Assembly (NCBI GenBank): GCA_965223405.1
Contig: CBDCWO010000006.1
Coordinates: 2,904,364 to 2,968,363, forward strand
Source of the DNA: Saprospiraceae bacterium
GTDB lineage: Bacteria; Bacteroidota; Bacteroidia; Chitinophagales; Saprospiraceae
Direction: 5' to 3'
DNA length: 64,000 nucleotides
Below are positions 20,165-55,502 of this stretch, in pieces. The notes under the pieces were generated by a model. The model did no database searches. It was not told where the DNA came from and was given only the letters and a program-made list of their open reading frames with translations. Numbering within the stretch: the stretch's first letter is position 1; each line of letters begins with the position of its first letter. A program made the translations under genes and the position numbers.

Positions 20165-20251
20165 TCCAGTTTGGCTGCGCCGCCAATTTAGGGAGTACCT
20201 CAATTAATTGCTTAACCGACCTTATTTTATGAATCTCATAACCGTATAACG

Positions 20252-20746: not shown

Positions 20747-20822
20747 AATTTCTACCATATGTCTAAATTTCTTCCCATAACGTCTTTTTTTTAAAATCAA
20801 AGGTTTAGTAAGTATAGTAATT

Positions 20823-21395: not shown

Positions 21396-21399
21396 ATAA

Positions 21400-21800
21400 A
21401 GCAGCTATAAGTATTACTACGTCTGCCTGCCGCTTTAGGTTGATTCTCGCGATGCCGAAAGGTTAAACATCTGCGATGTTCTTTCTTTGGGGGCCTGCTC
21501 GTGATTGTAGTCCAGGAGAGCCATAGACTTTGATCGGAAAGATTTGAAAACCCCGAATGCCGAAGTGCCGGCAAACACCATTATTATACACGGCGAGTAG
21601 GTTTTGGACATAGCAGTGGTTGATTCTTCCTTATTCGGAACACCGTCCCCTGGACCTGTGGGGGCCTACCAATTCTCCAATAAATCTGTGTTGGTACGCT
21701 TTTATTGCATGAATGCCAGAACCTAATGGAAAATGATCTTTGAAAAAATTGACTTGAGTGCGGGAGTAAATTCAAGTATTTTTCACTTTTGGGTAACGTT
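21400..21800 (+). pseudogene. decayed partial duplicate of the 24300-26030 locus (its upstream element plus an internal fragment of the Omp28-like gene) carrying a ~1.4-kb internal deletion and stop codons
   Basis: 21400-21560 aligns with 24300-24480 (core GCCTGCTCGTGAT..TAGTCCA). 21600-21790 aligns with 25860-26030 (VVD.S.FG..PGPVGAYQ.SNKSVLVRF...MIFEKIDLS), but with an in-frame stop. Confidence 0.5.
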
Positions 21801-37719: not shown

Positions 37720-38421
37720 TCAAATGTATCTTTCCCGCTTTTGTAAATTTATCAGAGCACCTAGGATAAAAACTACCGTTCCCACGCTTAAGAAAATCCG
37801 GCTTTTCCAAACGATTTGCTTCCAGGCCAGCTGACTGAATCCCCTGCGTGGGTCATAGGGATTTAAAAATACGTTCCAAAAAGTATCTTCCAGGAACTCA
37901 CTGAATATGGTCAATCCAACTCCGAGTATTACCATAACAACCGCCGTTGCATTACCATTTTTTATCCAGGTGGAAATCAAAAAAGCCAAACTACCCAGGA
38001 AGCAGATGGGAAACAACAATTGGATCGCTACTGAAACTGGATTTATTGGATACAACAACCAGGAACCAAGAGCAGCGAAAAGTATGAGTAAAATAAATAT
38101 TTGAGTAAATATCAGTACTAATCGAACCAGCCAAACTTTATAACGATAATCCGGAATACCAAAGTGGATTTCCAACATACGCGCATCCTCATCCCGTTGA
38201 ATCCCAAATACCACGGGATAAAAAATCAATAGAATGGCTGGAAAAAAAGTTAAAGAATAGATTGACCCAATATTGATTTCATCGTTTTCAAAAACACTTA
38301 TCACCATAAAAAATAGATAAAAAGCCAATGCGGCTACCAAAAACCAAAGAAAGCGTCCGGCAAAGATGACTTTCAAGTTATACTTGATCAAACTGCGGAT
38401 ATTTGTAATTGTATTGCGCAT
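37720..38421 (-). CDS. ABC-2-type permease-like integral membrane protein, translationally coupled (TAATG) to the upstream RND-ABC fusion gene
   Basis: 233 aa with 6 predicted TM helices. Its start codon overlaps the stop of the 38421-43112 gene by 1 nt. Confidence 0.5.
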   Translation of the reverse strand: MRNTITNIRSLIKYNLKVIFAGRFLWFLVAALAFYLFFMVISVFENDEINIGSIYSLTFFPAILLIFYPVVFGIQRDEDARMLEIHFGIPDYRYKVWLVRLVLIFTQIFILLILFAALGSWLLYPINPVSVAIQLLFPICFLGSLAFLISTWIKNGNATAVVMVILGVGLTIFSEFLEDTFWNVFLNPYDPRRGFSQLAWKQIVWKSRIFLSVGTVVFILGALINLQKRERYI

Positions 38422-41400
38422 TAGTTTTTAATATTCTTTAATAAACACAAATAGGCATCCTCCAAAACGGGATCAACGGAAATGGCCGATTCCTGGGGTT
38501 TATGTAGGGAAATACATCGGACCCGTATGTGATCACCTTCACGCAGGTGATTAACTACAACCTCTTCTGATTCAACCGTGGCAAAGTCCACTGCCGGGAT
38601 GATATATTCCCAAACCAGTCCTTGCGCCAGACCAAGCATATCCTGTGGTGAACCCTGGTATTTTACAGCACCATGATCCAACACGGCCAATTGATTGCAA
38701 GAACTGGCGATATCTTCGATGATATGAGTAGAAAACAGGACAATCCGATCACGGCTTAATTGTACCAGGAGGTTTCTGAAACGAATACGTTCGCGAGGAT
38801 CCAATCCGGCTGTCGGTTCATCGACGATTAATATTCGAGGCAAATGAAGTAATATTTGAGCGATACCAATACGTTGTTTCATTCCACCGGAAAAGGAACC
38901 GATTTTTTCATGTTTGCGATCCAACATATTTACAGAATCCAACACATAGAGTAATCGTTCCTCCCTTTTATTGCGGTCATGCAATCCTTTGAGGATGGCT
39001 TGATAATCAAGAAAAGCCCAGGCCGTCATATTGTCATAACTTCCAAATGCCTGAGGTAGATACCCAATTAATCCCTGAAGTTCTTCACGTTTCTCCTGCG
39101 TATCAATACCATTGATCCAGATCTTGCCATAACTTTGTTCGAAGATTCCAGAGATGATACGCATTAAAGTTGATTTCCCGGCTCCATTGGGTCCTAGCAG
39201 CCCATACATGCCGGTACCAATATTCAATGACACGGTATCAAGGGCCTTAAATGGGATTTTACGTCTACCAAGCAGTGGGATGCTGATAATCGAGCGATAA
39301 TAAAATCGTCTCAGCTTTCCCTTTATCCTTTCAACCTTTAGCTGTTTACGGTAGAAATATGCCGACGATTTATAAACAATCAATACCAAATACCAAACTA
39401 AACCCCAAAAAATGGTATATCCCCATTCCTCCCATTTCTGATTCATTTGAAAAAGTAATACCAGCGGACTGGCCCAAAATAGGAGTTCTCCCAAAATCAT
39501 TGGGATCCATTTCTTTTTATCAGAATAAACTAAATTAAAGGCTAACTTGAACGGTTGCCATATTCCCAATAATAGAAGATAAATGCCTATTCCAATCAGG
39601 AGTATCCAAAAGCCATCCTGCAAATAAGAAAATGCAAACCATCCTAAAAAGATTAGAAGAGGAATTTTCCAAATAAACTCACTTAACAATGCACCCCAGC
39701 GAATCTTACCTTCTTCGGATTGAAGAACAAAAGATGGTGTTTTGCTGTTTGACCACTCTCTTGAAAACCGACCGGGTCGATTGTAAATCTTTACCAGGTT
39801 TTGGACCTTAATGTATAATGCTTCATCGGTAGAGATCAGCCTGGTCTGAGCACGTTTTAGACTCGCTAAAATAAAATATGTAATAGCCGGAATCAGGAAG
39901 ACCAATAACAGGATATCCAGCAATTGCCATAGAAATGAAGTTACTCTGAAATAGATCAGTAACCCTCCACAGACGAAAAGGATGACATTCAATATTTTTA
40001 TCCATAGAGATAAACCTCTAAACCAATTAATGGTATTTTCTAACCCCAAATAGACTGTGGGGATCACGATTAAAGTAAGTACTGTTCCCAAAGCCAAACC
40101 TCCAATCACAGTTATTGCAAAAGGTGCTCCAATTACACTGACATATTCTGCTGTACCCAACGCCAAGGGAAACATAGCGGCAATAGTAGTAATAGCTGTA
40201 ATCAGGATTGGGCGTAACCTATGAAGTCCAGCAGTGATTAATGCCCGGATTTTACGATAGCCCTTTCTCCTCAAAGCATTGACATAATCAATCATGATGA
40301 TGCCATTGTTGACAATAACACCCAAAAGGATTAAAAATCCGGTGAGGGTATTGGCGTTGAATAATCCATTTCCGGTGATTGTTAAGGCTAATAGTGACCC
40401 TGTAGCGGCTAGTGGCACGGAAAACATCAATACAAAAGGTGCTGACAAAGATTCAAACACTGAAGCCAGGATAATGAAAATAAGGAGAATGGCTGCTCCT
40501 GCCAGTGCTTTAAAATCTTTGATCTGATCCTGGGCTGCTTCCATTTCGATAGCAATTCCCGGAGGGACCGGGTAGTTTGAGATTAGCAACTTTATGCTTT
40601 CCTGGTGCGCTTCCAGAAGTTCTTTTGACTGATTGGCTTCTTGAGAGCGAGTGTAAGAAATCTGTATTTGTTTCTGTTGGTTGATACGCCTGATATCATC
40701 ATAACTTTCACCTGTACGGATAGCAGATAAGGTGGACATTTCATGAGCTCCACCTTCTTGATCAATAACTTCCAACTTTTTGAGATCTGACATGGTTTTG
40801 GGTTGGAATCCTGATTGAAGGTCTTCATTATCGCGTATGATAATATTGTATTCATCGTCAACATATCTGAACTTGGTGTCCGCAGGTGCCTCTTGTTCGA
40901 AATTTCTTAATGCGATAGCAATATTTTCCGGAGTGACTTTATTTCTGGCCAGGGTTAAGGGGTCAAAGGCCAGCAATACTTCAGGTCGGTTGCCACGAGT
41001 GCTAAGATTAGCATTCCGGGTATCGTCCAGGTTTTGGATATAATATAGAAGATCCTGGGCAACTCTCTGCAACAATCCATAGTCCTCTCCTTTCACGACA
41101 ATTTTTTCCTGATTTTCACCAAAACCCATTAGTTGTCCCAGAGCATCCAATCCACCTAGGCCTTGAGAACCCTCACCGGAATTACTGGAAGCAAAACTAA
41201 TTCGAGCACCTCCGATGCGGCGGGTGAGATCTTCAATTTCCGATTTGATATCATTATAGGATCGATTATCTATTTTTTCAAAATCTTCTTTAAGCTTAAT
41301 ATTTACGACAGCATCTTCCTCCTGGATACGACTGCTGATATCTTGTTTCTCGGCGAGACCCTCTAGTTTAGATTCAATTTCGAGGACAATCTTATCTGTT

Positions 41401-43112
41401 TTCTCGATGGTACTGCCTTTGGCCATGGTTACAAAGACATCGATCTGATCCCTTTCTACTTCTTCAAGAGTATTAATACTGATAGCCAGAACGGCAAATG
41501 TAGTGATGAAAAACAAAACTAATCCACCAAGAATAGTTCTTGCCGGATATCGCAAACTGCTTTTTAGTAATACCAGATAGATGCGGGATGTTCGGTTCAT
41601 TTCATTCCGGCGACCAAATAGTCCTTTTTGTCGCTTACCATAAAATCCCAAACCAAGTAAAGCCAATACCGGAATCAACAACAAAGCGACTAATAAAGAA
41701 ACCATCAATGTAGATATAATCGATACGCCAATGTGTTTTCCGATCAGAGCGACCAGATAATTTCCAAAAAACAGAAAAGGGATAAATACTGTAGCCGTAG
41801 TCAAGGTTGCGGCAAAAATGGCCTTGGCTACTCCTGATACGCCCACAGAGACCGCTTTATCTGTCCGGATACCTGTAGATACTTTACGGTAAATATTCTC
41901 CAATACGACTATGCTGTTATCAAGTAACATTCCTATCGCCAGAGCCATACCTACGAGGGTTAAACTATTGATGGTTATTCCAGCTCCATAAAACAAATTG
42001 AAAGCGGCGAAAACAGAAACCGGAATCGATAAGGCTATTACAGAAACTAAACGAAGATCTTTAAGGAAAATCCATAATACGAAAACGGCCAGCAAACCCC
42101 CGATCAGGGCAAGATCTATTATCTGCTGGATATTTTCCTCCATGGTATCTGCAAGATTATTTTGAATTACAATTTGTACATCCTTGGCATGCAATTGATC
42201 ATTTAGTTGATTGATTAACTCTTTACAGCGATGTGAAAGCTCGATGATATTGGCTTGTGAGGCTTTGGTGGCAGTAAGAGAAATGGCGTCCTTTCCGTTA
42301 ACCCGGCTAATAGATGTCTCCTTGTCTACTCCAAAAGATATTTTGGCAACATCCCTTAATAGGATTGGTCCCGGGGCCATAACGGTGTTTTCAATATCTT
42401 TTACTTGGGTATATTCGGAGGCCGTGCGTACAAAAAGTCTGCGGTTTCCTTCGTACACGAATCCCGCCAGCGTTCTACTTCCTGAGTTCTGCATTAGCCG
42501 CGAACGCACTTGATCCGGAGTAATTTTATGGGGCTCGCAAGCTTGCTTATCCAATAGGATTTCAAGGGTTTTCTGTTGTCCTCCAAAAATATTAAGTGAA
42601 GCAATTCCGTCCAGGTTTTCAAAGGCTGGTCTGATTTCTTTTTCCGATATATTACGTAATCGATCGGTTCCTCCGCTACCACGAATCTGTAGTTCCAAGA
42701 ATTGATTGGTCAGCTGTTGCACATCTATTTTTGAAACTCGAACCAGGATATCTGATGGCAACTGACTCTTAACCGCATCAATCTTTTGCTGTAGTTTCAA
42801 AAAGACATATTTGAACTTAATTGATTGATCAAAACTGACTTGGATAAAAGCCCTATTACCATTAATTCGGGTATCGATCTTTTCTACTCCCTCCATGGTT
42901 CCGATTACTCCTTCCACTGGTATCACCCCCTGTTGTTCCAGGTATTGAGGGCTGATTTGTCTGGGCGATCCCACCTGTATAAAGAGCATAGGGAGCTCAG
43001 CATTTGGAAGTAACTCCACCGGTAAATATCGATAGGAAATATAACCCAATAGGCTCAAGCCTATGAATATCATACAGATGGTTACTTTCCTATGGATGAA
43101 TGCTAACTTCAT
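38421..43112 (-). CDS. fusion protein: a complete RND (AcrB/HAE1-type) efflux permease (aa ~1-1040), an additional ~6-TM region (aa ~1041-1285) and a C-terminal ABC-transporter ATP-binding domain (aa ~1286-1563)
   Basis: It is a single uninterrupted 1563-aa ORF. The RND hallmark is NSLTLVGMALAIGMLLDNSIVVLENIYRK plus a second-half equivalent. The C-terminal ABC domain has Walker A GPNGAGKST, a Q-loop, signature FSGGMKQR, Walker B ILIVDEPTAGLD and an H-loop STHII. Confidence 0.75.
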   Translation of the reverse strand: MKLAFIHRKVTICMIFIGLSLLGYISYRYLPVELLPNAELPMLFIQVGSPRQISPQYLEQQGVIPVEGVIGTMEGVEKIDTRINGNRAFIQVSFDQSIKFKYVFLKLQQKIDAVKSQLPSDILVRVSKIDVQQLTNQFLELQIRGSGGTDRLRNISEKEIRPAFENLDGIASLNIFGGQQKTLEILLDKQACEPHKITPDQVRSRLMQNSGSRTLAGFVYEGNRRLFVRTASEYTQVKDIENTVMAPGPILLRDVAKISFGVDKETSISRVNGKDAISLTATKASQANIIELSHRCKELINQLNDQLHAKDVQIVIQNNLADTMEENIQQIIDLALIGGLLAVFVLWIFLKDLRLVSVIALSIPVSVFAAFNLFYGAGITINSLTLVGMALAIGMLLDNSIVVLENIYRKVSTGIRTDKAVSVGVSGVAKAIFAATLTTATVFIPFLFFGNYLVALIGKHIGVSIISTLMVSLLVALLLIPVLALLGLGFYGKRQKGLFGRRNEMNRTSRIYLVLLKSSLRYPARTILGGLVLFFITTFAVLAISINTLEEVERDQIDVFVTMAKGSTIEKTDKIVLEIESKLEGLAEKQDISSRIQEEDAVVNIKLKEDFEKIDNRSYNDIKSEIEDLTRRIGGARISFASSNSGEGSQGLGGLDALGQLMGFGENQEKIVVKGEDYGLLQRVAQDLLYYIQNLDDTRNANLSTRGNRPEVLLAFDPLTLARNKVTPENIAIALRNFEQEAPADTKFRYVDDEYNIIIRDNEDLQSGFQPKTMSDLKKLEVIDQEGGAHEMSTLSAIRTGESYDDIRRINQQKQIQISYTRSQEANQSKELLEAHQESIKLLISNYPVPPGIAIEMEAAQDQIKDFKALAGAAILLIFIILASVFESLSAPFVLMFSVPLAATGSLLALTITGNGLFNANTLTGFLILLGVIVNNGIIMIDYVNALRRKGYRKIRALITAGLHRLRPILITAITTIAAMFPLALGTAEYVSVIGAPFAITVIGGLALGTVLTLIVIPTVYLGLENTINWFRGLSLWIKILNVILFVCGGLLIYFRVTSFLWQLLDILLLVFLIPAITYFILASLKRAQTRLISTDEALYIKVQNLVKIYNRPGRFSREWSNSKTPSFVLQSEEGKIRWGALLSEFIWKIPLLIFLGWFAFSYLQDGFWILLIGIGIYLLLLGIWQPFKLAFNLVYSDKKKWIPMILGELLFWASPLVLLFQMNQKWEEWGYTIFWGLVWYLVLIVYKSSAYFYRKQLKVERIKGKLRRFYYRSIISIPLLGRRKIPFKALDTVSLNIGTGMYGLLGPNGAGKSTLMRIISGIFEQSYGKIWINGIDTQEKREELQGLIGYLPQAFGSYDNMTAWAFLDYQAILKGLHDRNKREERLLYVLDSVNMLDRKHEKIGSFSGGMKQRIGIAQILLHLPRILIVDEPTAGLDPRERIRFRNLLVQLSRDRIVLFSTHIIEDIASSCNQLAVLDHGAVKYQGSPQDMLGLAQGLVWEYIIPAVDFATVESEEVVVNHLREGDHIRVRCISLHKPQESAISVDPVLEDAYLCLLKNIKN

Positions 43113-43151
43113 TTAGGTGTTTACTATTTCCATTGTCATTGTCATTGTCAT
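43113..43151 (-). promoter_or_regulatory. candidate leader-peptide uORF MTMTMTMEIVNT whose stop codon abuts the ATG of the RND-ABC gene (TAAATG)
   Basis: On the minus strand the sequence reads ATG ACA ATG ACA ATG ACA ATG GAA ATA GTA AAC ACC TAA directly 5' of the start codon at 43112. It is generated by a (CATTGT)n hexamer repeat. Confidence 0.35.
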
Positions 43152-43431
43152 TTGTCCATTTTCTATATGTACTTTCATTCAAAATTCCACCCCCTGCCCC
43201 CTCAAGGGTCCCTCAAGGGGGACAAAATTCTTCCATTACCATTGTGATTGCTATTGTCATTGCTATTGCCATTTGCTTATCCAATCTCCATTCATACTTT
43301 CATTCAAAATTCCACATCACATTTCCATTTGTCATCAACTTTTTCAGAAATACGGATACAATTACTATTGTCATTTATTTCAAGCAGATTTTCATTTTCA
43401 TTTCTTTATCTACTCAACATTGAATTCAATT
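43113..43431. repeat. repeat-rich intra-operon spacer: (CATTGT/CATTGC)n hexamer tracts and two diverged ~125-bp tandem units each ending in tactttcattcaaaattccac, plus the GC hairpin-like ccccctcaagggtccctcaaggggg
   Basis: Direct inspection: cattgtcattgtcattgtcatttgtccat at 43131-43160 and ccattgtgattgctattgtcattgctattgccatttgc at 43238-43275. The motif tactttcattcaaaattccac occurs at 43171 and 43296. Confidence 0.6.
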
Positions 43432-46400
43432 TCATTTGTCATTATTATTGTTGCCTCCAAAATCGATTGCCGAATAAACACAAGGAATCACGACAAGAGT
43501 CAGAAGCGTGGAGGTCACTAATCCTCCGATTACTGCCCAAGCCATGGGTGCTCTGAGGGCTGCACTTTCTCCAAATCCAAAGGTGAGCGGTAATAAAGCG
43601 AGTATGGTTGTAATACTGGTCATTAGAATAGGTCGTATTCGCTGCTGACCCGCAAGTACAATCGCATTGTTTCGACTTAATCCTCCACGCTTCAATTGGT
43701 TGATTCGATCCACAAGAATAATGGCATCGTTAACAGCTATGCCTACCAGCATGATGATACCTATAATGGCCATAATATTCAATGGAGTATTTAGCCAATA
43801 AAATGTAAAAATAGTGCCGACGACTGCAAGAGGAATCGTAAATAATATGATGAAAGGATGCAAAAGAGACTCAAATTGAGAGGCCATAACCATATAGACC
43901 AGGACTATGGATAAAATGAGAGAAAAAGTCAGACTTTGAAGTGATTGCTGTCGACGTGCTTCGTCTCCCACTACCGAAATACTGTAATTCGGTGGTAAAC
44001 TTATCGTGCTGGTTCGTTCTCGAATCTGGTTGGCCACGAATTCCAATGGTACTTGTTTGTCGGTTTGAGCGTAAACTTTTCCAATTCTGGCTTGATTACG
44101 TCGATGGATTTCCCGTGGTGCAATCGATGGGTTTAAAGTTGCGATTTCATGAAGACGATATTCTTTATCACCACCGTTGATGGTGATATTTTTAAAATCA
44201 TCCAGACCAATATCTGGCATCATCAGATCGATATCGATCATTTCCCCGGACTGTTCGATTTTTCCAGCAGTTTTGCCCTGCAATTGATCCTGGATTTGGG
44301 CAATCACATTACTCATATCCAAATTATACAAACCAAGTTTCAAGCGATCAAATAGAACTTCTATTTCCGGAGCTCCTTGTTCGATGGAAGTGCGCACATT
44401 TTGCAGCTCAGGCATATCCATTAAGCTATTCCGGACAGCTTGAGTAAGATCTTCTATGATATCCAAATTATCTCCTTTTATTTCCACTACCAATGGAGAT
44501 TCTTCCATGCTTAGGATGCTATTCAAAGAGGATACTTCAGGAGAGAATGAAAACTTAACACCAGATATTCCCGCAGTGATTTCATCGAGTGCCGAAATTA
44601 CATTTTGAGTTCCTAACCGGGTGCTATCAGTCAATGCTACTTCAATAATAGCGGTATGCTCACCTTGAAATAAAGAGGATCGATCTCCTCCTTCCAATTC
44701 GGTCTTCGGACCAATATGGCTATACACAAATTTAAGATCTTCATCCAATGCCTGCTGGATTATCCCTTCTACGTTGCTAATGGTAGCGGCTGTTCTGGCC
44801 AGGACAGTTCCCTCCGGCATTTGAACATTTACGCGAAATTTTTTGGTGGTGGATCTCGGCATGAATTCAGTACCAATCGAAGAATATAAATAAAGGGCTC
44901 CGGCCATAAGCAAAGCAGCGAGGAAAATAATCGCCCATTTTATTCTAAGCATGCCCTGTAGAAAGCCACCATATCTGCGGAGTTGAAATGATTTTGCCTT
45001 GGCAGGAGCATTCCTTTTTCGGTAAAAACGATGATATAACATCGGAATCACAAAAATAGCGACAAAAAGAGATGACAATAGTGAAAAGGCCACCGTCCAG
45101 GCTTGATCTTTAAACAGCTCGCCAGCTGCATCTTGTAAATAGACTACTGGCAGAAAAACAATAATCGTAGTCAATGTGGATGCAGTAATAGCCCCCCCAA
45201 CTTCAGCTGTACCAGTAATGACTGCGGATTTGGTGTCTGCGCCGGATTCGTGATTACGAAAAATATTTTCCAGGACTACAATGGCATTATCAACCAACAT
45301 TCCGGCACCCAAAGCAAGGCCGCCAAGTGTCATGATATTAATGGTCAGACCATTGAAATACATCAGTGTGAACGTCGCAATGATGGAAATAGGAATGGCT
45401 ATACCAATGATCAACGTCGTTCCAAAACGGTGCAAAAAGATAAAAAGAACGATAATTGCTAAGAGAATTCCAATTAACGCCGTTTCCTGAACTTCATCAA
45501 CAGCCGTTTTAATAAATGTGCCCTGATTCGAAATGATTTCAAAATGATATCCTGGAAGTGCAGACTCAATCACATCAAATGCCTCACTAATTTCTTCAAC
45601 GGCTTTGACCGTATTAAACCGGTTTTCCTTAAATATAGATAATCCGATGCAGCGATGGCCGTTGATCCGAACGATGTTTTTAGGTTCTTTATTAGTAAAC
45701 TTTGTTTCAGCAATGTCTTGCAAATAAATTGGAGTTCTATTGATATCGGCTTCATTTTCCGGTACGTTCAGATTTTCAGCTGTGGCTTGATCATGCTCTG
45801 AGCTTTCATTATAACCGATAATTAAATTATTGAAATCAGTCTCTGTCTCCAGCATACCTACTCCTTTTACTGTGTATCTTAGACCTAGGTCTTCTACAGT
45901 CCCTCCGGAAACATTTTGGTTGAAACTTTGAATTTTTTGGGTGATGTCATCAACGGTCAACTTGAAGGCTTTCAATTTATGCAGATCTGGTTTAATCACA
46001 ACTTCATGTTCTTCTTGTCCGGAAAGCGTAACCTGGGCAACTCCTTCAAGTCGCATTAATTCATTGCTGATGTAATTTTGGCTTATCTTCCTGAGTTCAT
46101 TTAAATCTGTAATTGAGGAATGAGAAATCCCTACTAGCATGATGGGTGCACTATTGGGATCAAACTGAGTTACATTGACGCGATCCAGTTCTCCACTTTG
46201 ATTAAAATCGTTTATGGCCTTCTGTAAATCCAGAAATGCTTCATCCATATCCTTGTTCCAATTGTATTCGATAGTCAGCTGGGCTGATCCGATACGGGTC
46301 ACTGAGGCAACCTGGGTGACACCTTGTTGTCTCATGGATAAAGCCTCGATTTGTTCTACATACTGCTTTTCAATTTCCTCCGGAGCCTTTTCACCGGCAT

Positions 46401-47603: not shown

Positions 47604-47637
47604 AAGTTTAGTTTTAATTATTTATTTGTTGATACAA

Positions 47638-49149
47638 CTAGTTATCCGACGGAAGCGCTATTGACACGGGTTCATTTTTTTCCCAATCGAAGAGTGTGAG
47701 TATTTTTAAATCCAGTAATTGTGTTTTATAATTAATTAAGGCACGAGCGTAGTCAATTTTCTTGGTAGATAGCTGATTCTGAAATTGATTAAGATCAATT
47801 CCTGATAAATCACCATTGATATACCTTTCAAGATTGATTTCATACGTTCTTTGCGCATTTTCTACACTTTTTTTGGCAATTTCGATACGAGGCATTTGAG
47901 TTTGAATATTACGGTAGGAACGGCGGATATCCATTCGTATCTGTTTGCGATCTTCAGCCAGGTCCAACCGCTGTGATCGCATGGATACTTCCTGGGCTCG
48001 AATCCGGGCTTCTCGTTCACCCCAATCGAAAATTGGTATGTTAAATGAAATTCCGATACTGGGGTTATTGGTAGGCATATTATAAATCTTGCCAAACTGC
48101 TCATCGTCCCCAAATATCCCTAGGGTCAACTGAAGATCTGCTCTAAACTCATTTTGGGCTTTAGTTCTTTCCAGTTCGAAAAATGATTTTTCAATGTTAA
48201 TTTGTCTTTGTTGGAGTTCCATGCGGGATTTCAAAGCATATTCGATGGCTTTTTCCAAATCCACGACTACAGGTATTGCTTCTAAATCAGTAGATAGCTG
48301 AATCTGCTGATCAAGGTTCATTCCAATTTCTCTTTTGAATGATTCTTCGGCATTCGTCAAAGCCAGTTCGCTATCCTGAAGTGACAGCTGAGCATTGGCA
48401 AAATTGAGTTCGGCCTGGTACAACTCCTCCTGTGCCAGCAATCCTGCTTCAACTTTGTTTTTCACGATCTCAAAATTTTTAGAAGTATTCTCCAGTTCAT
48501 CTTTGGCAATATCCAGGTTCAATTGAGCAAGATAGACATCAAAAAACTGACTGGTAATCGTTTTCTCCAGTGTTAATCGCTGAATAGCGTATTCCAAGCT
48601 GGCATTCTGATAGTTTAATTCCAATTCCTCAAGTTGCATTTTTCTTCGATTGAAAGTAAAGATCGGTTGGTTAAAGGCCAGATATAAATTATTGTAAAAC
48701 GCTTTATTGGAATTCTCTCCGAAACCCACAATTTCAGATTTGTTATTGCGCCAGCTTAAATTGTTGATTAAAGCAATAGTGCCATCGGTTTTCAAGATGG
48801 GTTGTTCTACCCGGAAAGATCCGGAAGAAAATACTTCCTTATTAGTGAACCACTGAGAAAACTGATTATCAAAACTCCGGCGGTTACTGAAGTTGAATGG
48901 ATCCAGAGTTAGGGAAAACCGTGATTTCAAGGATGCCCTTTCAGCTTCCAAGCTGAATTGATATTGTTCGATATTAAAAAGAGAACGCTGAATTGAAGGA
49001 CTTCCTTGTTCCGCTATTTCCATGGCCGACTCCAGAGTCAGTAGAGTCTGGGTAGATCCCGGTTGTGCAAGCAAAAATACAAACAACAAGAATCCGTGGG
49101 ATACAACTGAAGGTGCAATTCTAAATATTTTTAAGTATTTCATAATCAT
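47638..49149 (-). CDS. TolC-family outer membrane efflux protein
   Basis: 503 aa with a signal peptide and two repeated OEP halves with the characteristic coiled-coil-rich pattern (LTLESAMEIAEQGSPSIQRS...). Confidence 0.8.
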   Translation of the reverse strand: MIMKYLKIFRIAPSVVSHGFLLFVFLLAQPGSTQTLLTLESAMEIAEQGSPSIQRSLFNIEQYQFSLEAERASLKSRFSLTLDPFNFSNRRSFDNQFSQWFTNKEVFSSGSFRVEQPILKTDGTIALINNLSWRNNKSEIVGFGENSNKAFYNNLYLAFNQPIFTFNRRKMQLEELELNYQNASLEYAIQRLTLEKTITSQFFDVYLAQLNLDIAKDELENTSKNFEIVKNKVEAGLLAQEELYQAELNFANAQLSLQDSELALTNAEESFKREIGMNLDQQIQLSTDLEAIPVVVDLEKAIEYALKSRMELQQRQINIEKSFFELERTKAQNEFRADLQLTLGIFGDDEQFGKIYNMPTNNPSIGISFNIPIFDWGEREARIRAQEVSMRSQRLDLAEDRKQIRMDIRRSYRNIQTQMPRIEIAKKSVENAQRTYEINLERYINGDLSGIDLNQFQNQLSTKKIDYARALINYKTQLLDLKILTLFDWEKNEPVSIALPSDN

Positions 49150-49159
49150 AGATTTTGAT

Positions 49160-52100
49160 CTAATCCATTTTTACCAATTTAATTGCATCGGCAAAAATTG
49201 CTCTGAGTCTGGATTCATTACTTAATGTAATAGTAGCTGTATCTGCTGTAAAAACATAATCGCCAAGGGAGTTCCAACCACCCGGAGATTGGTGGGATAA
49301 TTCGATACTTGGACGGTCTATTCCATTCGCATGGGGTATCACAAATTGATAATTTCCTTTTTGACCGCGATTCCAATTGAATGAATCGTCTTTATACACA
49401 TGATAAAAGACATCATATCTTCCCGGTTCGGATATCGGAATATTCCATTTGGCTTCCTTGGAGCCATCCCCGGCTTTGATGTAGAAGGCGGATCTAATGA
49501 ATTCTCCAAAAAAGCGATCATTGGTCGTTGCCGTCCAATTGAGAGGTGCACGCCATACCATAGTACCCTGATACTTGAAATCATCGTCCACTTCCGCTTT
49601 CAACCATTTGCGAAGCCGGCTTACTTCTTCAAAATGGGTAAATTCGAAACTGGGATTTTCATTGTCAACAATGATCTCATTATCATTTACGATCACCAGG
49701 GGGTTAGCAACGATTTCCTGTTTTTCTACAGCATTGGTAACCTTAGTTTTGTTAATGACTTCAAAGGAATAGTCAATCTGGTTGGGTAGATTTCCCGAAG
49801 TAAGTGTATTAAAATGGATACCGGCCGGTTCAGTCAGTGATAAATAAAATGCTTCTTTAGTTTGCCCTGGCTCGAGATATATCAATTTTTCCTGGGTATC
49901 TCCTGGGCGAAGTTTGGATTTCACTACACCTCCCGTTGTCCCCAAGTTTGAAATCTTAAAGCGAACCCGGTTCATTTCTCGATTCCCCACCAACACCTTC
50001 TCGGCCACAGGAGTGCTAAATAGATATTGAGCCATATCGGTTTCGTTAAACCATTTGGTCATATGTTGGGATAAATCCACTCCAAATTCGGCGTAAATGT
50101 GTTTTTGGAACTCTGCAAATTTTAGATTTTTGAAACGATATTCTTGCAACAACTGGATTACATATTCTCGAAACCGGTCTGTTTTTGCAATGGCTTGAAT
50201 CATTGAAAAGAGCATCTCTCCCTTTAATTCTATAACATTGTCTATCAAAGATTGGTGTTCCGATAGATTTAGAATTTGGGCAAAGGATTTTTCCTGTAAA
50301 ACCATATTGGCCAATTCATTTTGGGTACTGCCGCTTGTCTGTCGCATCCAATCCCTGCCGCGATTGTTTTCGATTCGTAAATAAGACTCAAAGACACGAT
50401 TTAGAACTGGCCAATCTTTTGAATCCAGATTGTTACACATTTCATATAATTGACCAAATTGATAGTACGGATTTAAAGTTTCTTCTACCTGCGCCCTACC
50501 GGCATTAAAATTGGTGTTGATGTTTTTGAATCGGTAAAATTCTTCTAAGAATACATGGAGTACCTCGATTTGCAATTCCTCAGCAGTTTTATTTCGGCGG
50601 CGGTTCCACCTTTTGCGACGCTTGACGGATCCATTAAAATCCAAATTCCTGGTGTACAAGCCTTTTTCCGGTATCAATACTTGTCCGGGTTGGATTGTCT
50701 GATGAACTGAGGTCCAATTGCGATCATAGGTTTTGAATTGACCAGGAACCTCGATGATTGTAAATTTATCAAATGGGTATTTTAGCCCGGATTGCCGTTC
50801 AAAATCTCTTAACCTTTCTTCAATAATTGAAGGGAGGGTATCTCTTATATCCTGAAAGGCATTATTAAAATAGTCATGGCCATCGATGTAATAGAGTGAA
50901 AACTTCATGCTATCGGTATCCAAGGTGGTCCGTTTGTAATTTCCTATTGCTACTGACAGTTGAGGTAAACCATAGTCACGTTCAAAAAAATAAGTGTTTT
51001 CTTCCAGTTGTGTAGGATGACCTTGTGAAATCGGAATCAATCCGGGCAGAGTTTTTATGGTCAATTGGTAATTGACAAAATCCTTTCGATACCAGAATGG
51101 TGATGCATTACTATATCCGACTCCTGATTGGGGATACCATTGCGCTTCAGGTGTTAACAGTAGATATTGCGGATGGATAAATGCGTATCTACTCCCAATA
51201 TCAAATAAATAATTCTTCTTTTTTTCAGATTTAAGTTTTTCATCAATATCCAAATAGCAGGCATTTTCGTCAATTGTACCCTGATATTCTATGCGCAATT
51301 CGATTGAAGTTTCAATAGGCAAAATAGTATCAAATCGAACTATCAACAATTGTAATTTTCGCTCATATTCCAATTCCTTTGCTATTGATGAAACAGATAT
51401 GACTTTTAGTCCCGGATTTAAAGTAAAAACAAATTCGCTAGCCGCTGTCTCCGTATAACCTTTTATTCTTGAAACGGCCTTGTAATCGGACTCATTTTGT
51501 TCCAATCTAATTTCATGATCTTCAATATCAATTTGGGCATGCGAGATATAGCTATTATTCAGTGCAATCATTTCTGCCGATAAGACTTTGTGTTCCTGAT
51601 AATTCTTTAAATGCTGGTGGCCGAGGTAAAGAGCAGATCCAATTGCCAGGACACCCAACATAAAAGATGAGATATTTATTAATCTGGATTGGGGTAAACG
51701 ATTTGAAATGAGGATAGAAAAAAACATGAAACCTAAACCCAAACAAGTATACATTACCCGCAGACTCAATATCGTAGGCCAGTCTCCAAAACCGACTAAT
51801 TCCGAATGAAATAAAGGGAGATAAAAGGCCATATAATCAAAGAGGTAATTGTGGGATCCGCGTAAATAAATTAAGCTGGAAAGGATATAACCCAATAGCA
51901 GAACAAAAGTCAATGCCTGATTACGGATAACTCCCATTAAAAAGATAGACAATCCAACAATAAATGTTAACGTAGGAACAGAGATTAACAGTGGATAGTA
52001 CAAATAAGCCTGCCAATCGACGTAGGTATCCTTGGCTAGTAAATTAAAAACCAGCGCCATCAACAATGCCACCACGTTGATCAATAGAAATATGGACAAG

Positions 52101-52435
52101 ATGCTCCAAACTTTACCAAACAGATATGTGGCATTACTCATGGACCGAACATAAAAGACCTCGGTGGTGTCCTGTTTTCGGTCACGTTTTATAAATTCTG
52201 AAGACAAGAATACAGCAATAATTGCCTGTGCGACATTTAGGATAAATAGATTGGCATAAGGAAGATTTGCAGGGATTGCCCGATACACCCATTCCATATC
52301 ACCCACCTCAGAAATTTCACCCATATTGAATGCAAATAGTACAAATAGTGAGAGCACCGAGAAAATTCTAAAAAACCAACTCCGCATTAGAATTTTGCGC
52401 TCGTATTTTGCTATCGTTCTAAAAGTAAAGATCAT
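49160..52435 (-). CDS. ABC-2-family permease (6 TM, aa 1-300) fused to a ~790-aa extracytoplasmic domain of unassigned fold (possibly M1-aminopeptidase-like, but no HExxH)
   Basis: 1091 aa. The N-terminal polytopic domain is like GldF/ABC-2 permeases. It lies directly downstream of an ABC ATPase gene. The large soluble C-terminal region has no zinc motif. Confidence 0.6.
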   Translation of the reverse strand: MIFTFRTIAKYERKILMRSWFFRIFSVLSLFVLFAFNMGEISEVGDMEWVYRAIPANLPYANLFILNVAQAIIAVFLSSEFIKRDRKQDTTEVFYVRSMSNATYLFGKVWSILSIFLLINVVALLMALVFNLLAKDTYVDWQAYLYYPLLISVPTLTFIVGLSIFLMGVIRNQALTFVLLLGYILSSLIYLRGSHNYLFDYMAFYLPLFHSELVGFGDWPTILSLRVMYTCLGLGFMFFSILISNRLPQSRLINISSFMLGVLAIGSALYLGHQHLKNYQEHKVLSAEMIALNNSYISHAQIDIEDHEIRLEQNESDYKAVSRIKGYTETAASEFVFTLNPGLKVISVSSIAKELEYERKLQLLIVRFDTILPIETSIELRIEYQGTIDENACYLDIDEKLKSEKKKNYLFDIGSRYAFIHPQYLLLTPEAQWYPQSGVGYSNASPFWYRKDFVNYQLTIKTLPGLIPISQGHPTQLEENTYFFERDYGLPQLSVAIGNYKRTTLDTDSMKFSLYYIDGHDYFNNAFQDIRDTLPSIIEERLRDFERQSGLKYPFDKFTIIEVPGQFKTYDRNWTSVHQTIQPGQVLIPEKGLYTRNLDFNGSVKRRKRWNRRRNKTAEELQIEVLHVFLEEFYRFKNINTNFNAGRAQVEETLNPYYQFGQLYEMCNNLDSKDWPVLNRVFESYLRIENNRGRDWMRQTSGSTQNELANMVLQEKSFAQILNLSEHQSLIDNVIELKGEMLFSMIQAIAKTDRFREYVIQLLQEYRFKNLKFAEFQKHIYAEFGVDLSQHMTKWFNETDMAQYLFSTPVAEKVLVGNREMNRVRFKISNLGTTGGVVKSKLRPGDTQEKLIYLEPGQTKEAFYLSLTEPAGIHFNTLTSGNLPNQIDYSFEVINKTKVTNAVEKQEIVANPLVIVNDNEIIVDNENPSFEFTHFEEVSRLRKWLKAEVDDDFKYQGTMVWRAPLNWTATTNDRFFGEFIRSAFYIKAGDGSKEAKWNIPISEPGRYDVFYHVYKDDSFNWNRGQKGNYQFVIPHANGIDRPSIELSHQSPGGWNSLGDYVFTADTATITLSNESRLRAIFADAIKLVKMD

Positions 52436-52455
52436 TACTATTCAAAATTCATTTA

Positions 52456-53361
52456 CTAACTGGTCAATATCGATTTGGAATTATTTTTAATGGTATGTTC
52501 AACAAAGTAGACATAGGCATGCTCTAAATTTGGGGGTATTGCTTCCGCATTATAACCACTTACATCATCACCGACCACAATGACCTTCCAACCATCCTTC
52601 ATCATCATGGTGGATACCACTTGAAATTTTTGATTAACGTCCATGTATTCCTGCTCCGATACATGAATAGACCATACATGGTTTTGGGCCTGTTGAATAA
52701 GTTTTTCCGGAGACCCTGAAAACGCTACCTTTCCCTTATTTAAAAGAGCCATATGCTCACAAGTGCTGGAAATATCCGCCACAATATGCGTCGAAAGGAT
52801 AATAATGACATCTTGTGAACTCAAGTGGGCTAACAGATTTCGAAATCGAATACGCTCTTCGGGATCCAGTCCGGTAGTAGGTTCATCTACTACGATTATT
52901 TTTGGATTATTAATTAAAGCTTGAGCGATACCAAGTCGTCGTTTCATACCACCTGATAACTTACCTGCTTTACGGCTTCTCACATCAAAAAGACCAACTT
53001 CTTCCAGCAAATGGTCTACGGCCTGAGTTCGTTCACGTTTGGTTTTCATGCCGGCCAGTCGAGCTGCATAATCCAAAAACTCATGAGTTTTCAAGTTGGA
53101 GAAAAAGCTAAAATCCTGAGGTAAGTACCCTAGCATGCTACGTACGTAATCTCGGTTTTCTGCAACATCTTTTCCGTTTACTAACACTTTGCCACTACTG
53201 GGTTTCATCAAAGTCACCAAAATTCGCATTAAACTGGATTTACCCGCACCATTTGGTCCAAGCAACCCGAACATACCTTCCTTAATTTCAAGATTAATAT
53301 CATGGAGGGCATGATTTCCGTTTGGATAAACTTTGTTCAAGCCTTGTATTGAGATATTCAT
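52456..53361 (-). CDS. ABC transporter ATP-binding protein (ABC-2/GldA-like), paralogous to the NBD fused to the RND gene
   Basis: 301 aa. It has Walker A GPNGAGKSS, signature LSGGMKRR, Walker B IIVVDEPTTGLD and H-loop LSTHIV. It shares long identical stretches with the 38421-43112 C-terminal domain (LDPEERIRFRNLL vs LDPRERIRFRNLL). Confidence 0.9.
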   Translation of the reverse strand: MNISIQGLNKVYPNGNHALHDINLEIKEGMFGLLGPNGAGKSSLMRILVTLMKPSSGKVLVNGKDVAENRDYVRSMLGYLPQDFSFFSNLKTHEFLDYAARLAGMKTKRERTQAVDHLLEEVGLFDVRSRKAGKLSGGMKRRLGIAQALINNPKIIVVDEPTTGLDPEERIRFRNLLAHLSSQDVIIILSTHIVADISSTCEHMALLNKGKVAFSGSPEKLIQQAQNHVWSIHVSEQEYMDVNQKFQVVSTMMMKDGWKVIVVGDDVSGYNAEAIPPNLEHAYVYFVEHTIKNNSKSILTS

Positions 53362-53551
53362 TTCATCGTGGTAAGGTTATCTGAAAGTAAGAAACTTATG
53401 CAGCGCAAATGAATTAATAGGGATGAAATTAGATTAATACCGTGATGAGCTCGACGAAATAGATGTTATTTGAGAGTTCGGTAACACACAATATCGAAAT
53501 ATCAGAAAAGGAGAGAATATTGTTTGTCTGAATAAAAGGGTGGATGTACAG

Positions 53552-54331
53552 TCAATTTTTTCTAATACCCAATAGATTGACCACACAGTTTTCCATATTA
53601 CCTACGGTAAACGCAAATTCCTGCTTTATTTTAGTGCCATCGGAGTAGCTGGCGGGACTCCAATTGGGCATGCAACGAATTGCGTTTAATAATAAGGTAT
53701 CGATTTTTTCATCCTTAAAAGGCCAAAAAATATGCGCATTAACGACTTGTCCTAGATTATCAATGGTAAATTTTACGGTAGCTAAGTCGAGATTCTGAAA
53801 GGTACTATCCGGAATTTGACTTAAGGCGTTTTCCTTCAGATAGTGTCTCAGCTGTTGTACACCACCGGGATATTTTGCATCACTTTGGGGAAGTACGGCC
53901 AGTTTAAAATCAATGACTTTGATTTCATTATGACTTAAAGTGTTATCAGGAATGTATTGAACCACAACGGCTATATCAGTTCCTGAGTCGGCCACGGTGA
54001 TCAGATCTTTTTGTTTCTGACTGAGGGTATCGTTTTTACTCCTGGCCGTTTTGGTCTGGCCTCGATAGAGTGTTATTATCTCTACCGAAATATATTCTTT
54101 GATCCAGGAAGATTGATATTTCTCATTCAGATCAATTAGGGTTTGTGCTGTTTTGAGTTCATCCTTTGTAATCGAAAAATACGGATAGATCGGATTGATT
54201 TCAAAATGAAGTTCATTGCTAAATCGCTCTTGGGATATACTAAAATGAGGGAAAGAGAGCCACACAAATATCACAGTTACAAAGAGATGTTTGATCAATT
54301 TAGCAACAAATTCAGGCATATCGAGGTTCAA
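53552..54331 (-). CDS. TonB C-terminal-domain-like membrane-anchored protein. The first gene of the efflux operon. (The start is TTG at 54331 or ATG at 54319.)
   Basis: 259 aa with an N-terminal TM anchor. The C-terminal ~90 aa (AKYPGGVQQLRHYL...VKFTIDNLGQVVNAHI...) resemble the TonB_C fold. Confidence 0.5.
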   Translation of the reverse strand: MNLDMPEFVAKLIKHLFVTVIFVWLSFPHFSISQERFSNELHFEINPIYPYFSITKDELKTAQTLIDLNEKYQSSWIKEYISVEIITLYRGQTKTARSKNDTLSQKQKDLITVADSGTDIAVVVQYIPDNTLSHNEIKVIDFKLAVLPQSDAKYPGGVQQLRHYLKENALSQIPDSTFQNLDLATVKFTIDNLGQVVNAHIFWPFKDEKIDTLLLNAIRCMPNWSPASYSDGTKIKQEFAFTVGNMENCVVNLLGIRKN

Positions 54332-54515
54332 GGTTTATAACTATCAGTAATTAAGCAAAGTTAATCTGGAGCCTATATTTATCAAATTGTAAAGTGTAAA
54401 TTAGTGTAAAATGAACGTAAACCACTTCCAAAAAGGGTAATAATCCAATACTTTTGTATCATAGTCAATACGAATGTCGTTCTTTAACCAATACCAATTT
54501 TGACCAAATTTTAGT

Positions 54516-55502
54516 ATGACTGCATCAAAAAATATATTTCATTCAGGTATTTTTCTTGTGAACTTGGTTATAGAAAAACAAATTAAATCAGCATACCAGA
54601 AACTTGGATTATTGGTGGTCTTATTCATAATTCCCTTCGCAGCAATTAGCTCATCGGATAAACTGGTTGATGAAAAACGTACCATGGTAGCCATGAGAAC
54701 CATCGGGCATCAGGTATTACTTAGTATCGGAGATAGCGACTCTCGGATCATGCCTATTGAAAAGACAGATGGATATTTTAAAATTCCTTTTGGAGTTGAA
54801 TTTGGATTTGATCCAGGAGATATTGTTTCAATCATTGACAGTATAATGAGAGATACAAAATTTGCATCCCATGTATTAGTCGAAGTAGGACAATGTGACT
54901 CTAATGAGATCGTACATAGTTTTGAAATTAAAAATGAAGGAAACTCCAGTAAGATTGCTTGTATCGGGAGAAAATTGCCAAAGGACTGTTATAGTCTTTT
55001 TGTTACTATTATAGACAGCAGTGGATCTGGAAATCAGAGTCCTGATAAATTATCATCTAGTGGTTTGTCCATAATTTCATCCAAGTTCAAAGAATCAAAA
55101 CTTTTTCAATCTGCATTCTTGTTGACCCCTTTGATTCTACTACTGGGTTTTTTAGGTTATTTTATCAATAAGAAAAATGAGGTTAGCAAAGATCCAAATC
55201 TGATACTAATCGGTTCTTCCGAGTTTGATACGCGGAATATGTCCCTTTCATATCAAGATAAAAGGGTTGAGTTGTCATACAAAGAAGCACAACTACTTTC
55301 CTTACTTCACACTTCTGCAAATACACCTATCGCACGCGAAGTGTTGCTCCAAAGGGTTTGGGGTGATGAAGGTGGTTATGTAGGAAGGACGCTAGATGTC
55401 TTTATTTCCAAATTACGTAAAAAACTGGAGGCAGATGCCAGTGTGAAAATTGTAAATATCAGAGGGGTTGGTTATAAACTGGTCATGAAGGCTACGAAGT
55501 AA
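54516..55502 (+). CDS. membrane-anchored one-component regulator with a C-terminal OmpR/PhoB-type winged-helix DNA-binding domain (trans_reg_C), divergent from the efflux operon
   Basis: 328 aa. It has an N-terminal signal/TM, a predicted extracytoplasmic domain, a TM at ~aa 195-215 and a C-terminal wHTH (LSYKEAQLLSLL...REVLLQRVWGDEGGYVGRTLDVFISKLRKKLE...IRGVGYKL). Confidence 0.65.
   Translation: MTASKNIFHSGIFLVNLVIEKQIKSAYQKLGLLVVLFIIPFAAISSSDKLVDEKRTMVAMRTIGHQVLLSIGDSDSRIMPIEKTDGYFKIPFGVEFGFDPGDIVSIIDSIMRDTKFASHVLVEVGQCDSNEIVHSFEIKNEGNSSKIACIGRKLPKDCYSLFVTIIDSSGSGNQSPDKLSSSGLSIISSKFKESKLFQSAFLLTPLILLLGFLGYFINKKNEVSKDPNLILIGSSEFDTRNMSLSYQDKRVELSYKEAQLLSLLHTSANTPIAREVLLQRVWGDEGGYVGRTLDVFISKLRKKLEADASVKIVNIRGVGYKLVMKATK

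Follow-up and report, generated by a model that had tools for sequence, protein, structure and literature searches.

A conserved gene cassette from Saprospiraceae in which an RND transporter is fused to an ABC ATPase

Introduction

In a 2021 review of tripartite systems, resistance-nodulation-division (RND), ATP-binding cassette (ABC) and major facilitator superfamily (MFS) transporters are alternative energisers, and a natural fusion is not mentioned (PMC8277102). The locus described here raises the question of whether two of these energisers can belong to one exporter. It lies in a 64,000-nucleotide stretch of a Saprospiraceae bacterium genome (assembly GCA_965223405.1, contig CBDCWO010000006.1, positions 2,904,364 to 2,968,363; hereafter the window, whose numbering is used throughout unless another locus is named), and its core consists of seven minus-strand genes, encoding a free ABC ATPase, a large permease (permease A), an outer-membrane factor (OMF), a periplasmic adaptor of the membrane fusion protein (MFP) type, an RND permease (RND1), a second RND permease fused to a nucleotide-binding domain (RND2::NBD) and a small permease (permease B). 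A first-pass annotation, made from the sequence alone, had described a hybrid efflux operon of nine open reading frames (ORFs), counting a TonB-like protein and a divergent regulator in addition to these seven. The ORF listing of the window contained all nine, each at the coordinates and on the strand given there.

Results

An RND transporter and an intact ABC ATPase in one protein

Domains were called by profile searches of the window proteins against Pfam and NCBIfam. The fusion gene encodes a single protein consisting of a full AcrB-type RND transporter, six extra transmembrane (TM) helices and an intact ABC ATPase. Full-length homologues (1548-1577 aa, 99-100% query coverage, 53-78% identity) numbered more than 120. 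Obtained from isolates (Portibacter, Maribellus) and many metagenomes, they all carried both ACR_tran and ABC_tran, and at source they bore just the labels 'efflux RND transporter permease subunit', 'ATP-binding cassette domain-containing protein' or a JGI double label. When the window proteins were compared with related loci by tblastn, 69 loci were informative, with all genes detectable, and in 68 of these the linker match began no more than 3 nt from the end of the RND2-core match, in frame. When only the linker (residues 1025-1289) was used as a HMMER query against 1.84 billion representatives, just 72 clusters matched, in which the full-length proteins were all 1550-1577 aa long and matched at about residues 1025-1295; no linker was found outside this fusion among these representatives. 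Shorter matches, considered as a stand-alone module of the six-helix linker and the NBD, resembled truncated metagenome genes whose completeness could not be shown, and this candidate was rejected. The unusual length of the ORF is the only point in favour of an artefact joining two genes. Because the full-length homologues extend down to 53% identity, and given the in-frame junction and the conserved linker residues, a sequencing, assembly or frameshift artefact was ruled out as vanishingly improbable, and the RND-TM-NBD fusion proposed in the first-pass annotation was confirmed.

The AlphaFold model of the region behind the RND core contained a TM13-TM14 hairpin, a short detached segment (LYIKVQNLVKIY), a four-helix stretch (TM15-TM18) and the body of the NBD (NBD-B) with its C-terminal domain (Table 1). 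The segment LYIKVQNLVKIY, modelled as a beta strand, aligned with the N-terminus of the free ATPase (NBD-A), ISIQGLNKVY (residues 3-12), which lies 23 residues ahead of the NBD-A Walker A motif, and its L, V, K, Y and R residues were invariant in 30 homologues. We take this segment to be strand 1 of the ABC ATPase, including the A-loop aromatic residue that stacks on adenine. According to the model, the fused NBD is thus split by a membrane insertion of four helices and about 170 residues between the A-loop and strand 2, indicating that parts from either side of the insertion must come together to form the ATP site. The resulting topology is consistent: starting from the cytoplasmic C-terminus of the RND part, two and then four helices would leave the chain in the cytoplasm each time, so that TM13-TM14 probably return it there after RND TM12 and TM15-TM18 do so again.

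The two ATPase domains are intact

NBD-A contained all canonical motifs (Walker A, 35-42; Q-loop, 79-82; signature, 135-140; Walker B DEPT, 155-162; H-loop, 190-193), which were canonical in 79 of 79 orthologues. Likewise, the Walker A, Q-loop, signature, Walker B Glu and H-loop of the fused NBD were all present and were invariant in 30 aligned fusion proteins. The invariance of the catalytic motifs in both domains indicates that ATP hydrolysis is under selection.

In a pairwise alignment the two domains were 42% identical over 276 residues (E 1e-79), and the runs that they share identically were mainly the canonical motifs together with ERIRFRNLL. The earlier description of close paralogues with long identical peptides was therefore correct as to paralogy but not as to closeness. 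A further proposal, that both belong to a GldA-like group, did not survive: the best NCBIfam matches of NBD-A were DrrA and then GldA, both below cut-off, and the GldA scores (TIGR03522; 202.9 bits for NBD-A and 165.9 bits for the fused NBD) reached only about half of the equivalog cut-off of 402.6 bits or less, which rules out GldA membership and leaves a generic similarity to ABC-2 ATPases. The nearest folds of the NBD-B body and C-terminal domain were TM_1403, NosF (of NosDFY), LptB and the NBDs of ABCA proteins. An NBD-A/NBD-B heterodimer shared by the two permeases is plausible on these sequences; since both domains keep every catalytic motif, no degenerate site argues for or against it.

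The cassette is conserved across two phyla

A GTDB scan at one genome per species, using a permease A alignment (1091 residues), confirmed at least 541 relatives, the best 80 of which were all from Saprospiraceae or Prolixibacteraceae. The core consists of the ATPase, permease A, OMF, MFP, RND1, RND2::ATPase and permease B genes. The first six were found in the same order and on the same strand in 69 of 69 loci, permease B followed the fusion gene wherever the locus extended that far, and all seven genes occurred in identical order in Maribellus luteus, Portibacter marinus and one further genome. A distant version keeps the ATPase, the large permease (1124 aa, with Golvesin_C), MFP, RND1, RND2::NBD and a small permease of 239 aa, without an OMF gene; fragments labelled Candidatus Latescibacterota are among the members of its 90% cluster, and a flagellin gene is located nearby. 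The cassette is kept across two phyla, as seven genes or as six without the OMF gene. With its homologues co-occurring elsewhere and its order and strand maintained, the cassette is a dedicated system rather than a chance neighbourhood, as had been suggested. The family is common in marine and sediment Bacteroidota, and the small permease alone forms thousands of clusters; where the listed homologues had names at source, these were 'RND permease', 'ABC domain protein', 'xanthan lyase' or 'hypothetical'.

Within the core, the ORF coordinates left intergenic gaps of 20, 10 and 34 bp, the MFP stop codon overlapped the RND1 start by 4 nt (ATGA), and the fusion stop codon overlapped the permease B start by 1 nt (TAATG). 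Two larger gaps, of 190 bp between the TonB-like gene and NBD-A and of 319 bp between RND1 and RND2, do not fit the minimal or overlapping spacing that had been described for the whole operon. A convergent gene for the chromosome segregation protein ScpA (36951-37697, plus strand) ends 22 bp from the end of the permease B gene, indicating that the cassette ends at 37720 with no further co-oriented gene. A scan for sigma-70 promoters and terminators gave counts at or near shuffle expectation; Bacteroidota promoters lie outside the scope of that scan. In the 190-bp gap (53362-53551), near matches to the Bacteroidota -7 motif TAnnTTTG (ttcatttg and taagtttc) were noted by eye, and the core may therefore have its own promoter, separate from the TonB-like gene.

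In Prolixibacteraceae, further genes that are conserved within the lineage flank the cassette, and the window has none of them. Immediately upstream of the ATPase is a gene for a signal-peptide protein of about 194-201 aa; on the downstream side are a Peptidase_U32 gene and an ORF of about 291 aa (coordinates of these flanks: L001, 15600-17793; L002, 15517-17711; L051, 8100-8684; L060, 8211-8792; L023, 8275-8880).

Table 1. Features of the cassette and its neighbours, with positions in the window and the evidence for each
Feature	Position	Strand	Evidence or remark
Membrane-bound one-component regulator, 328 aa, outside core	54516..55502	+	Trans_reg_C
TonB-like neighbour ORF, membrane-anchored protein	53552..54331	-	TIGR01352 17.7 bits; one N-terminal hydrophobic segment; outside conserved core
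NBD-A, free ABC ATPase, 301 aa, gene 1 of core	52456..53361	-	ABC_tran E 3.6e-33
Permease A, 1091 aa	49160..52435	-	Pfam, AlphaFold, Foldseek
Outer-membrane factor, TolC family, 503 aa	47638..49149	-	OEP 150.6 bits, two stretches; signal peptide
Periplasmic adaptor MFP, lipoprotein, 351 aa	46548..47603	-	HlyD / RND_mfp TIGR01730
RND1, stand-alone RND permease, 1039 aa	43432..46551	-	ACR_tran 691 bits
RND1/RND2 spacer, 319 bp	43113..43431		Repeats; 'repeat leader' of the first-pass annotation
RND2::NBD fusion, 1563 aa	38421..43112	-	ACR_tran residues 4-1022 and ABC_tran residues 1292-1435
Fusion: RND2 core, residues 1-1025	40038..43112	-	ACR_tran 507 bits
Fusion: TM13-TM14 hairpin, residues 1036-1087	39852..40007	-	AlphaFold helices 27-47 and 51-78 of fragment
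Fusion: detached NBD strand 1 and A-loop, LYIKVQNLVKIY, residues 1099-1110 (putative)	39783..39818	-	Matches NBD-A residues 3-12
Fusion: TM15-TM18 insertion, residues 1139-1255	39348..39698	-	AlphaFold helices 130-246 of fragment
Fusion: NBD-B body and C-terminal domain, residues 1296-1563	38424..39227	-	ABC_tran 98 bits; Walker A at 1307
Permease B, 233 aa, 6 TM, final core gene	37720..38421	-	Hydropathy

The RND pair has an altered proton relay

Both RND proteins matched ACR_tran (PF00873; 1021 positions, cut-off 28 bits) almost completely, RND1 over profile positions 2-1020 and the RND2 core over 4-1018, and the two were 27% identical end to end. MdtB of E. coli was the best solved relative of both RND1 (E 1e-83) and RND2. 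The NCBIfam multidrug RND subfamilies NF033617 and NF000282 gave at best 559 bits for RND1 and 425 bits for RND2, below their cut-off of 1250 bits.

We determined the equivalents of the AcrB proton-relay residues from HMMER alignments and from an alignment of orthologues (75 RND1 and 73 RND2 sequences). The Asp at D407, the Arg at R971 and the Thr at T978 are kept, whereas D408 and K940 are each replaced by Asn. In RND2 the motifs LLDNS (TM4, 396-403), VNNG (TM10, 932-939) and RLRPILIT (TM11) were invariant; in the RND1 orthologues TM4 reads VDNA and TM10 reads VND or VNN, the D407/D408 pair is invariantly D/N, and K940 is N in all listed variants. The residue that follows the K940 equivalent is D, N or S in RND1 and always Asn in RND2. 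In AcrB, changing any residue of the triad D407, D408 and K940 abolishes efflux; in SecDF, a TM4 Asp and TM11 Arg pair suffices for proton coupling (PMC8277102). Since two of the three triad residues are replaced, neither RND1 nor RND2 is a canonical HAE-1 pump; by analogy with SecDF, the retained TM4 Asp and TM11 Arg could still support proton coupling by both.

A Gly/Phe/Met-rich loop was also noted in the periplasmic porter part of RND2 (window about 41100-41200, fusion residues about 640-670; SSNSGEGSQGLGGLDALGQLMGFGENQ), in a region left unaligned by HMMER, with the RND2-family consensus GGGGGG..GM..FG.FMGIG. This loop may be an enlarged counterpart of the Gly-Phe switch loop of AcrB.

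The remaining tripartite components were readily recognized. The MFP scored 201.3 bits against TIGR01730 (RND_mfp; cut-off 94.9) and has a lipobox, LLLAC, and the OMF matched OEP (PF02321) with both stretches above the gathering score, the NCBIfam TolC and NodT models staying below cut-off.

A stretch of about 125 bp is imperfectly duplicated in the RND1-RND2 spacer, which also has GACAAT-like runs and a single G+C hairpin; these motifs are unique within the window. Repeats are therefore present, as the label 'repeat leader' implied, but a leader role found no support: an Rfam search of the spacer returned no family, it folded no better than shuffled sequences (z-score 0.63), and its length ranged from 15 to 2371 bp across 71 loci, so that a structured or known RNA was rejected and we regard it as a non-conserved spacer of variable length and content. 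Separately, this junction is a hot spot for insertions: one genome has a PDDEXK_3 gene there, a second has a 263-aa ORF, and a dozen loci from Prolixibacteraceae and Saprospiraceae have about 500-600 bp at this point (examples: L002, 9533-9913; L087, 19654-20445; L011, about 19380-21751).

Permease A carries an inactive M1-aminopeptidase-like domain

The AlphaFold model of permease A (pLDDT 77, pTM 0.68) placed seven TM helices within about the first 275 residues (window 51611-52435); behind them come one beta-sandwich, a helical domain and then more beta-sandwiches. From the seven predicted helices, the charge distribution and the positive-inside rule, the N-terminus is probably cytoplasmic and the C-terminal part of about 815 residues periplasmic. 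The description of an ABC-2 permease with a large extracytoplasmic domain was thus upheld for the domain, but the ABC-2 assignment itself remained weak, with ABC2_membrane_2 and ABC2_membrane_4 (PF12679 and PF12730) at 21.2 and 20.0 bits against cut-offs of about 27 (27.2 for ABC2_membrane_2). A Golvesin_C domain scored above cut-off at residues 966-1088 (window 49172-49540; 50.4 bits), and Pfam gave a weak Peptidase_M1 match. A Foldseek search of the PDB with the model showed that about residues 300-900 have an M1-aminopeptidase fold, as had been suspected; the matches were ERAP1 (E 2.9e-16), IRAP, ERAP2, tricorn F3 and PSA, with E values of about 3e-16, 610-650 aligned columns and 11-13% identity, and the pseudo-M1 module itself was assigned to about residues 300-800. 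Neither HExxH, from the zinc site HExxH-(18)-E, nor the exopeptidase motif GxMEN was found anywhere in the 1091 residues of permease A, which rules out an active M1 peptidase and indicates an inactive M1-like module.

Each permease gene sits directly after an ATPase gene or domain. The window copy of permease B had no family match in Pfam or NCBIfam; the 239-aa distant orthologue weakly matched ABC2_membrane_2/3, and a 219-aa copy from another diverged contig matched ABC2_membrane_3 (PF12698). Its homologues formed 3983 clusters, the best 120 of which were nameless or 'hypothetical protein' and lacked a Pfam domain. With its six helices and such distant orthologues, this gene encodes a candidate ABC-2 permease, the assignment made earlier.

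The TonB-like protein and the regulator are local neighbours

The TonB-C-like label of the ORF upstream of NBD-A was found to depend on a sub-threshold TIGR01352 match (cut-off 27.1 bits; E 0.0034). Pfam gave no match to this protein even at E<=10, no TonB structure was among its PDB sequence matches, and it has no Pro-rich spacer. The ORF listing begins this gene at a TTG (54331); the ATG at 54319 (MPEFVAK...), four codons further in, is the likelier start. The divergent regulator does have the architecture proposed for it, an extracytoplasmic sensor with a Trans_reg_C domain (residues 249-322; 68.1 bits, cut-off 26.2). Hydrophobic segments at residues 30-48 and 199-217 enclose an outside domain of about 150 aa, no Response_reg match was found, and the NCBIfam matches covered the C-terminal third only; a TM segment, about 150 aa, a second TM segment and a winged helix, with no receiver domain, indicate a membrane-bound one-component regulator. 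A second 328-aa ORF in the window (26759-27745), considered as a regulator paralogue, proved to be unrelated.

Among 83 related loci, tblastn at E<=1e-5 detected no homologue of the TonB-like protein and only two short matches to the regulator (in L077 and L083); these lie some 3-5 kb upstream of the ATPase, on the other strand, and look like generic winged helix-turn-helix similarity rather than a divergent neighbour. In the nearest relative on a long contig (70-78% identity), neither of the two neighbours is present, and the ATPase is preceded by genes for a MacB-like permease and a SnoaL-like protein; elsewhere the upstream genes vary by lineage, among them genes for an M14-like peptidase and for a signal-peptide protein of about 194 aa. 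Because they have no counterpart at related loci, we treat the TonB-like gene and the regulator as local neighbours, possibly recruited in this genome, and on synteny we reject the claim that they are parts of the conserved system. Two identical (100%) 274-aa ORFs for DDE transposases (DDE_Tnp_1_3 / DDE_Tnp_1) are located at 29007-29831 and 55733-56557, both on the minus strand and the latter directly downstream of the regulator gene, indicating recent insertion sequence (IS) activity at the non-conserved flank of the cassette.

Discussion

A candidate two-stage exporter

The reading that we consider most likely, and to which we give an even chance on the sequence evidence, is two-stage export by an ABC-2 exporter that is tethered to a hetero-oligomeric RND/MFP/OMF pump. 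Together, the seven minus-strand genes (37720-53361) would then encode one composite trans-envelope exporter. RND1 and RND2 would form a hetero-oligomeric trimer, as in MdtB2C, with the single lipoprotein adaptor and the TolC-like channel as partners; MdtBC is a rare heterotrimeric RND pump, encoded by two tandem RND genes and served by one adaptor (PMC8277102). RND2 and NBD-B are parts of one chain, joined through the two extra TM helices, and the four-helix insertion pins NBD-B to the membrane. NBD-A, NBD-B and permeases A and B would constitute a type-V ABC transporter beside or under the RND trimer, either as one heterodimer (NBD-A/NBD-B with permeases A/B) or as two homodimers. In terms of direction and handover, the ABC part would use ATP to move an amphiphilic substrate from the cytoplasm or inner leaflet to the periplasmic face, where the substrate might enter the chamber of the inactive M1-like domain, and the RND/MFP/OMF part would then expel it across the outer membrane. 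The stoichiometry that we infer follows the same logic: one NBD-bearing and one NBD-less RND paralogue, with one or two fused protomers per trimer, would reconcile a threefold RND assembly with a twofold ABC transporter, and the strict co-conservation of the NBD-less paralogue fits such matching.

Several observations weigh against this proposal. No conserved cargo or biosynthetic gene was found beside the cassette in the related loci examined, and the substrate is consequently a guess: by analogy with the usual cargo of ABC-2 and RND exporters, it might be a lipid or glycolipid for secretion or some amphiphilic component of the envelope. Each NBD gene precedes its own permease gene, the usual arrangement where two homodimeric ABC-2 transporters work independently, so that no shared heterodimer is needed. 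Neither BLASTP nor hhalign (probability 0.84%, E 0.066) detected homology between permease B and the membrane domain of permease A. The structure models are of moderate confidence (pLDDT 75-77), and the six extra TM helices have no assigned role. A tighter version is possible but decidedly more tentative: RND2::NBD would mechanically link an ATP-driven ABC transporter to a proton-coupled RND trimer, giving a single supercomplex that couples two energy sources or two consecutive transport steps, with the membrane-split NBD as the transmission element and the pseudo-M1 domain as a hand-over chamber.

Two other explanations account for parts of the same evidence, and we regard both as unlikely. 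In the main rival, the RND cycle itself might be driven or gated by the fused NBD, dimerized with NBD-A or with a second fusion protein, such that ATP replaces or supplements the proton-motive force and the ABC-2 permeases act as coupling scaffolds. In its favour, both RND proteins lack two triad residues (D408 and K940 to Asn), any change of which abolishes efflux in AcrB (PMC8277102), and the NBD is welded to TM12 of RND2 through membrane helices by a conserved junction. However, the TM4 Asp, the TM11 Arg and the Thr persist, an Asp/Arg pair being enough in SecDF (PMC8277102); RND1 has the same substitutions and yet no NBD; no route is known by which NBD motion would enter the RND transmembrane bundle; and the two co-conserved ABC-2-type permeases are what a normal ABC translocation path needs. 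Alternatively, an ordinary RND/MFP/OMF pump and one or two ABC-2 transporters might be separate systems that travel together, serving the same pathway or substrate class but not forming one complex, with the fusion as a device for stoichiometry or co-localization that involves no mechanistic coupling. The ATPase-permease gene order, as in independent ABC-2 operons, would agree with this, as would the ability of the OMF gene to drop out and of the RND1-RND2 junction to accept inserts of up to 2.4 kb and extra genes, which suggests two sub-operons; a family-specific six-TM linker fusion kept down to 53% identity and across two phyla is, however, hard to explain without a functional link, and the gene order was unbroken in 69 loci.

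Far less probable, in our judgement, is the first-pass version, an export system for gliding or secretion with a TonB-like energy transducer under a divergent OmpR-type regulator. It gains from the architecture of the regulator, from the weak TonB-C-like similarity at the end of the upstream protein, from the position of both genes directly upstream of the cassette and from GldA being the second-best NCBIfam match of the ATPases. Against it, neither gene was conserved beside the cassette in the 83 loci or in the nearest relative; upstream genes vary by lineage; the GldA scores are half of the cut-off; the TonB match is sub-threshold and comes without a Pro-rich spacer; and an IS element flanks the regulator. 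What endures from the first-pass annotation is the composite system, the fusion and the M1-like fold, whereas the membership of the TonB-like protein and the regulator, the GldA-like assignment and the leader role of the repeat spacer (43113-43431) do not.

A conserved polypeptide that combines an RND permease with a catalytically intact ABC ATPase breaks the picture of RND, ABC or MFS as alternatives (PMC8277102). If the tethered two-stage exporter that we favour is correct, the cassette would offer a model for coordinating the cytoplasm-to-periplasm and periplasm-to-outside steps of efflux, and one for matching a threefold RND assembly to a twofold ABC dimer. The NBD split by a four-helix insertion and the pseudo-aminopeptidase on an ABC-2-like permease are each a structural novelty of its own. 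Targeted full-text searches for an RND-ABC fusion or an ABC-2/M1 permease, and a broader Saprospiraceae/RND/ABC search, returned nothing relevant; the component parts are known and their combination is not, and the sequences are already public under generic names.

Comparison with known systems

One close precedent is MdtABC-TolC of E. coli and Salmonella. Both have tandem RND genes beside one adaptor gene (in the order MFP, RND1, RND2 in 69 of 69 loci here) and a TolC-family channel, the adaptor being a lipoprotein in our case, and MdtB is the best solved match of both RND proteins; a heterotrimer may form here too. Unlike in MdtABC, RND2 is extended by 540 residues, which comprise six TM helices and an ABC ATPase; the cassette also conserves a second ATPase along with two ABC-2-type permeases; and the relay reads D/N/N rather than D/D/K, with only 27% identity between the paralogues. 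In MacAB-TolC and DevBCA-HgdD, as in the cassette, the genes for an MFP and an OMF accompany one for an inner-membrane component that hydrolyses ATP. MacB, however, is a type VII ABC protein with an FtsX fold and its own periplasmic domain and involves no RND protein, whereas the NBDs described here are of the ABC-2 class and a complete RND pair is also present.

On the ABC side, NosDFY(L) shows several likenesses: NosF is among the best structural matches of the fused NBD including its C-terminal domain (7osf_B, 7o0y_B), some permease A homologues are named NosY-like 'multi-copper enzyme maturation permease', and both systems combine an ABC-2 membrane domain with a large periplasmic module. 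In the cassette, by contrast, this module is fused to the permease, has an M1-like fold instead of the beta-helix of NosD and is linked to an RND pump, and no nos genes are near. GldA/GldF/GldG likewise has a Bacteroidota ATPase of the ABC-2 class, and GldA ranked high among the NCBIfam matches; the differences lie in the scores (203 and 166 bits against 402.6), in the gene context and in the absence of GldF and GldG homologues from the Pfam and NCBIfam searches.

Two single-domain comparisons remain. Permease A shares with M1 aminopeptidases (ERAP1, IRAP, tricorn F3, aminopeptidase N) the multi-domain fold and a weak Peptidase_M1 match; unlike them, it lacks HExxH and GxMEN, is only 11-13% identical, is tethered to a seven-TM ABC-2-like domain and continues into a Golvesin_C beta-sandwich. 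NBD1 of CFTR has a short, disordered, soluble regulatory insertion between strands 1 and 2, indicating that this site of the ABC fold tolerates extra sequence; the insertion in the fused NBD differs in comprising about 170 residues that are predicted to form four TM helices.

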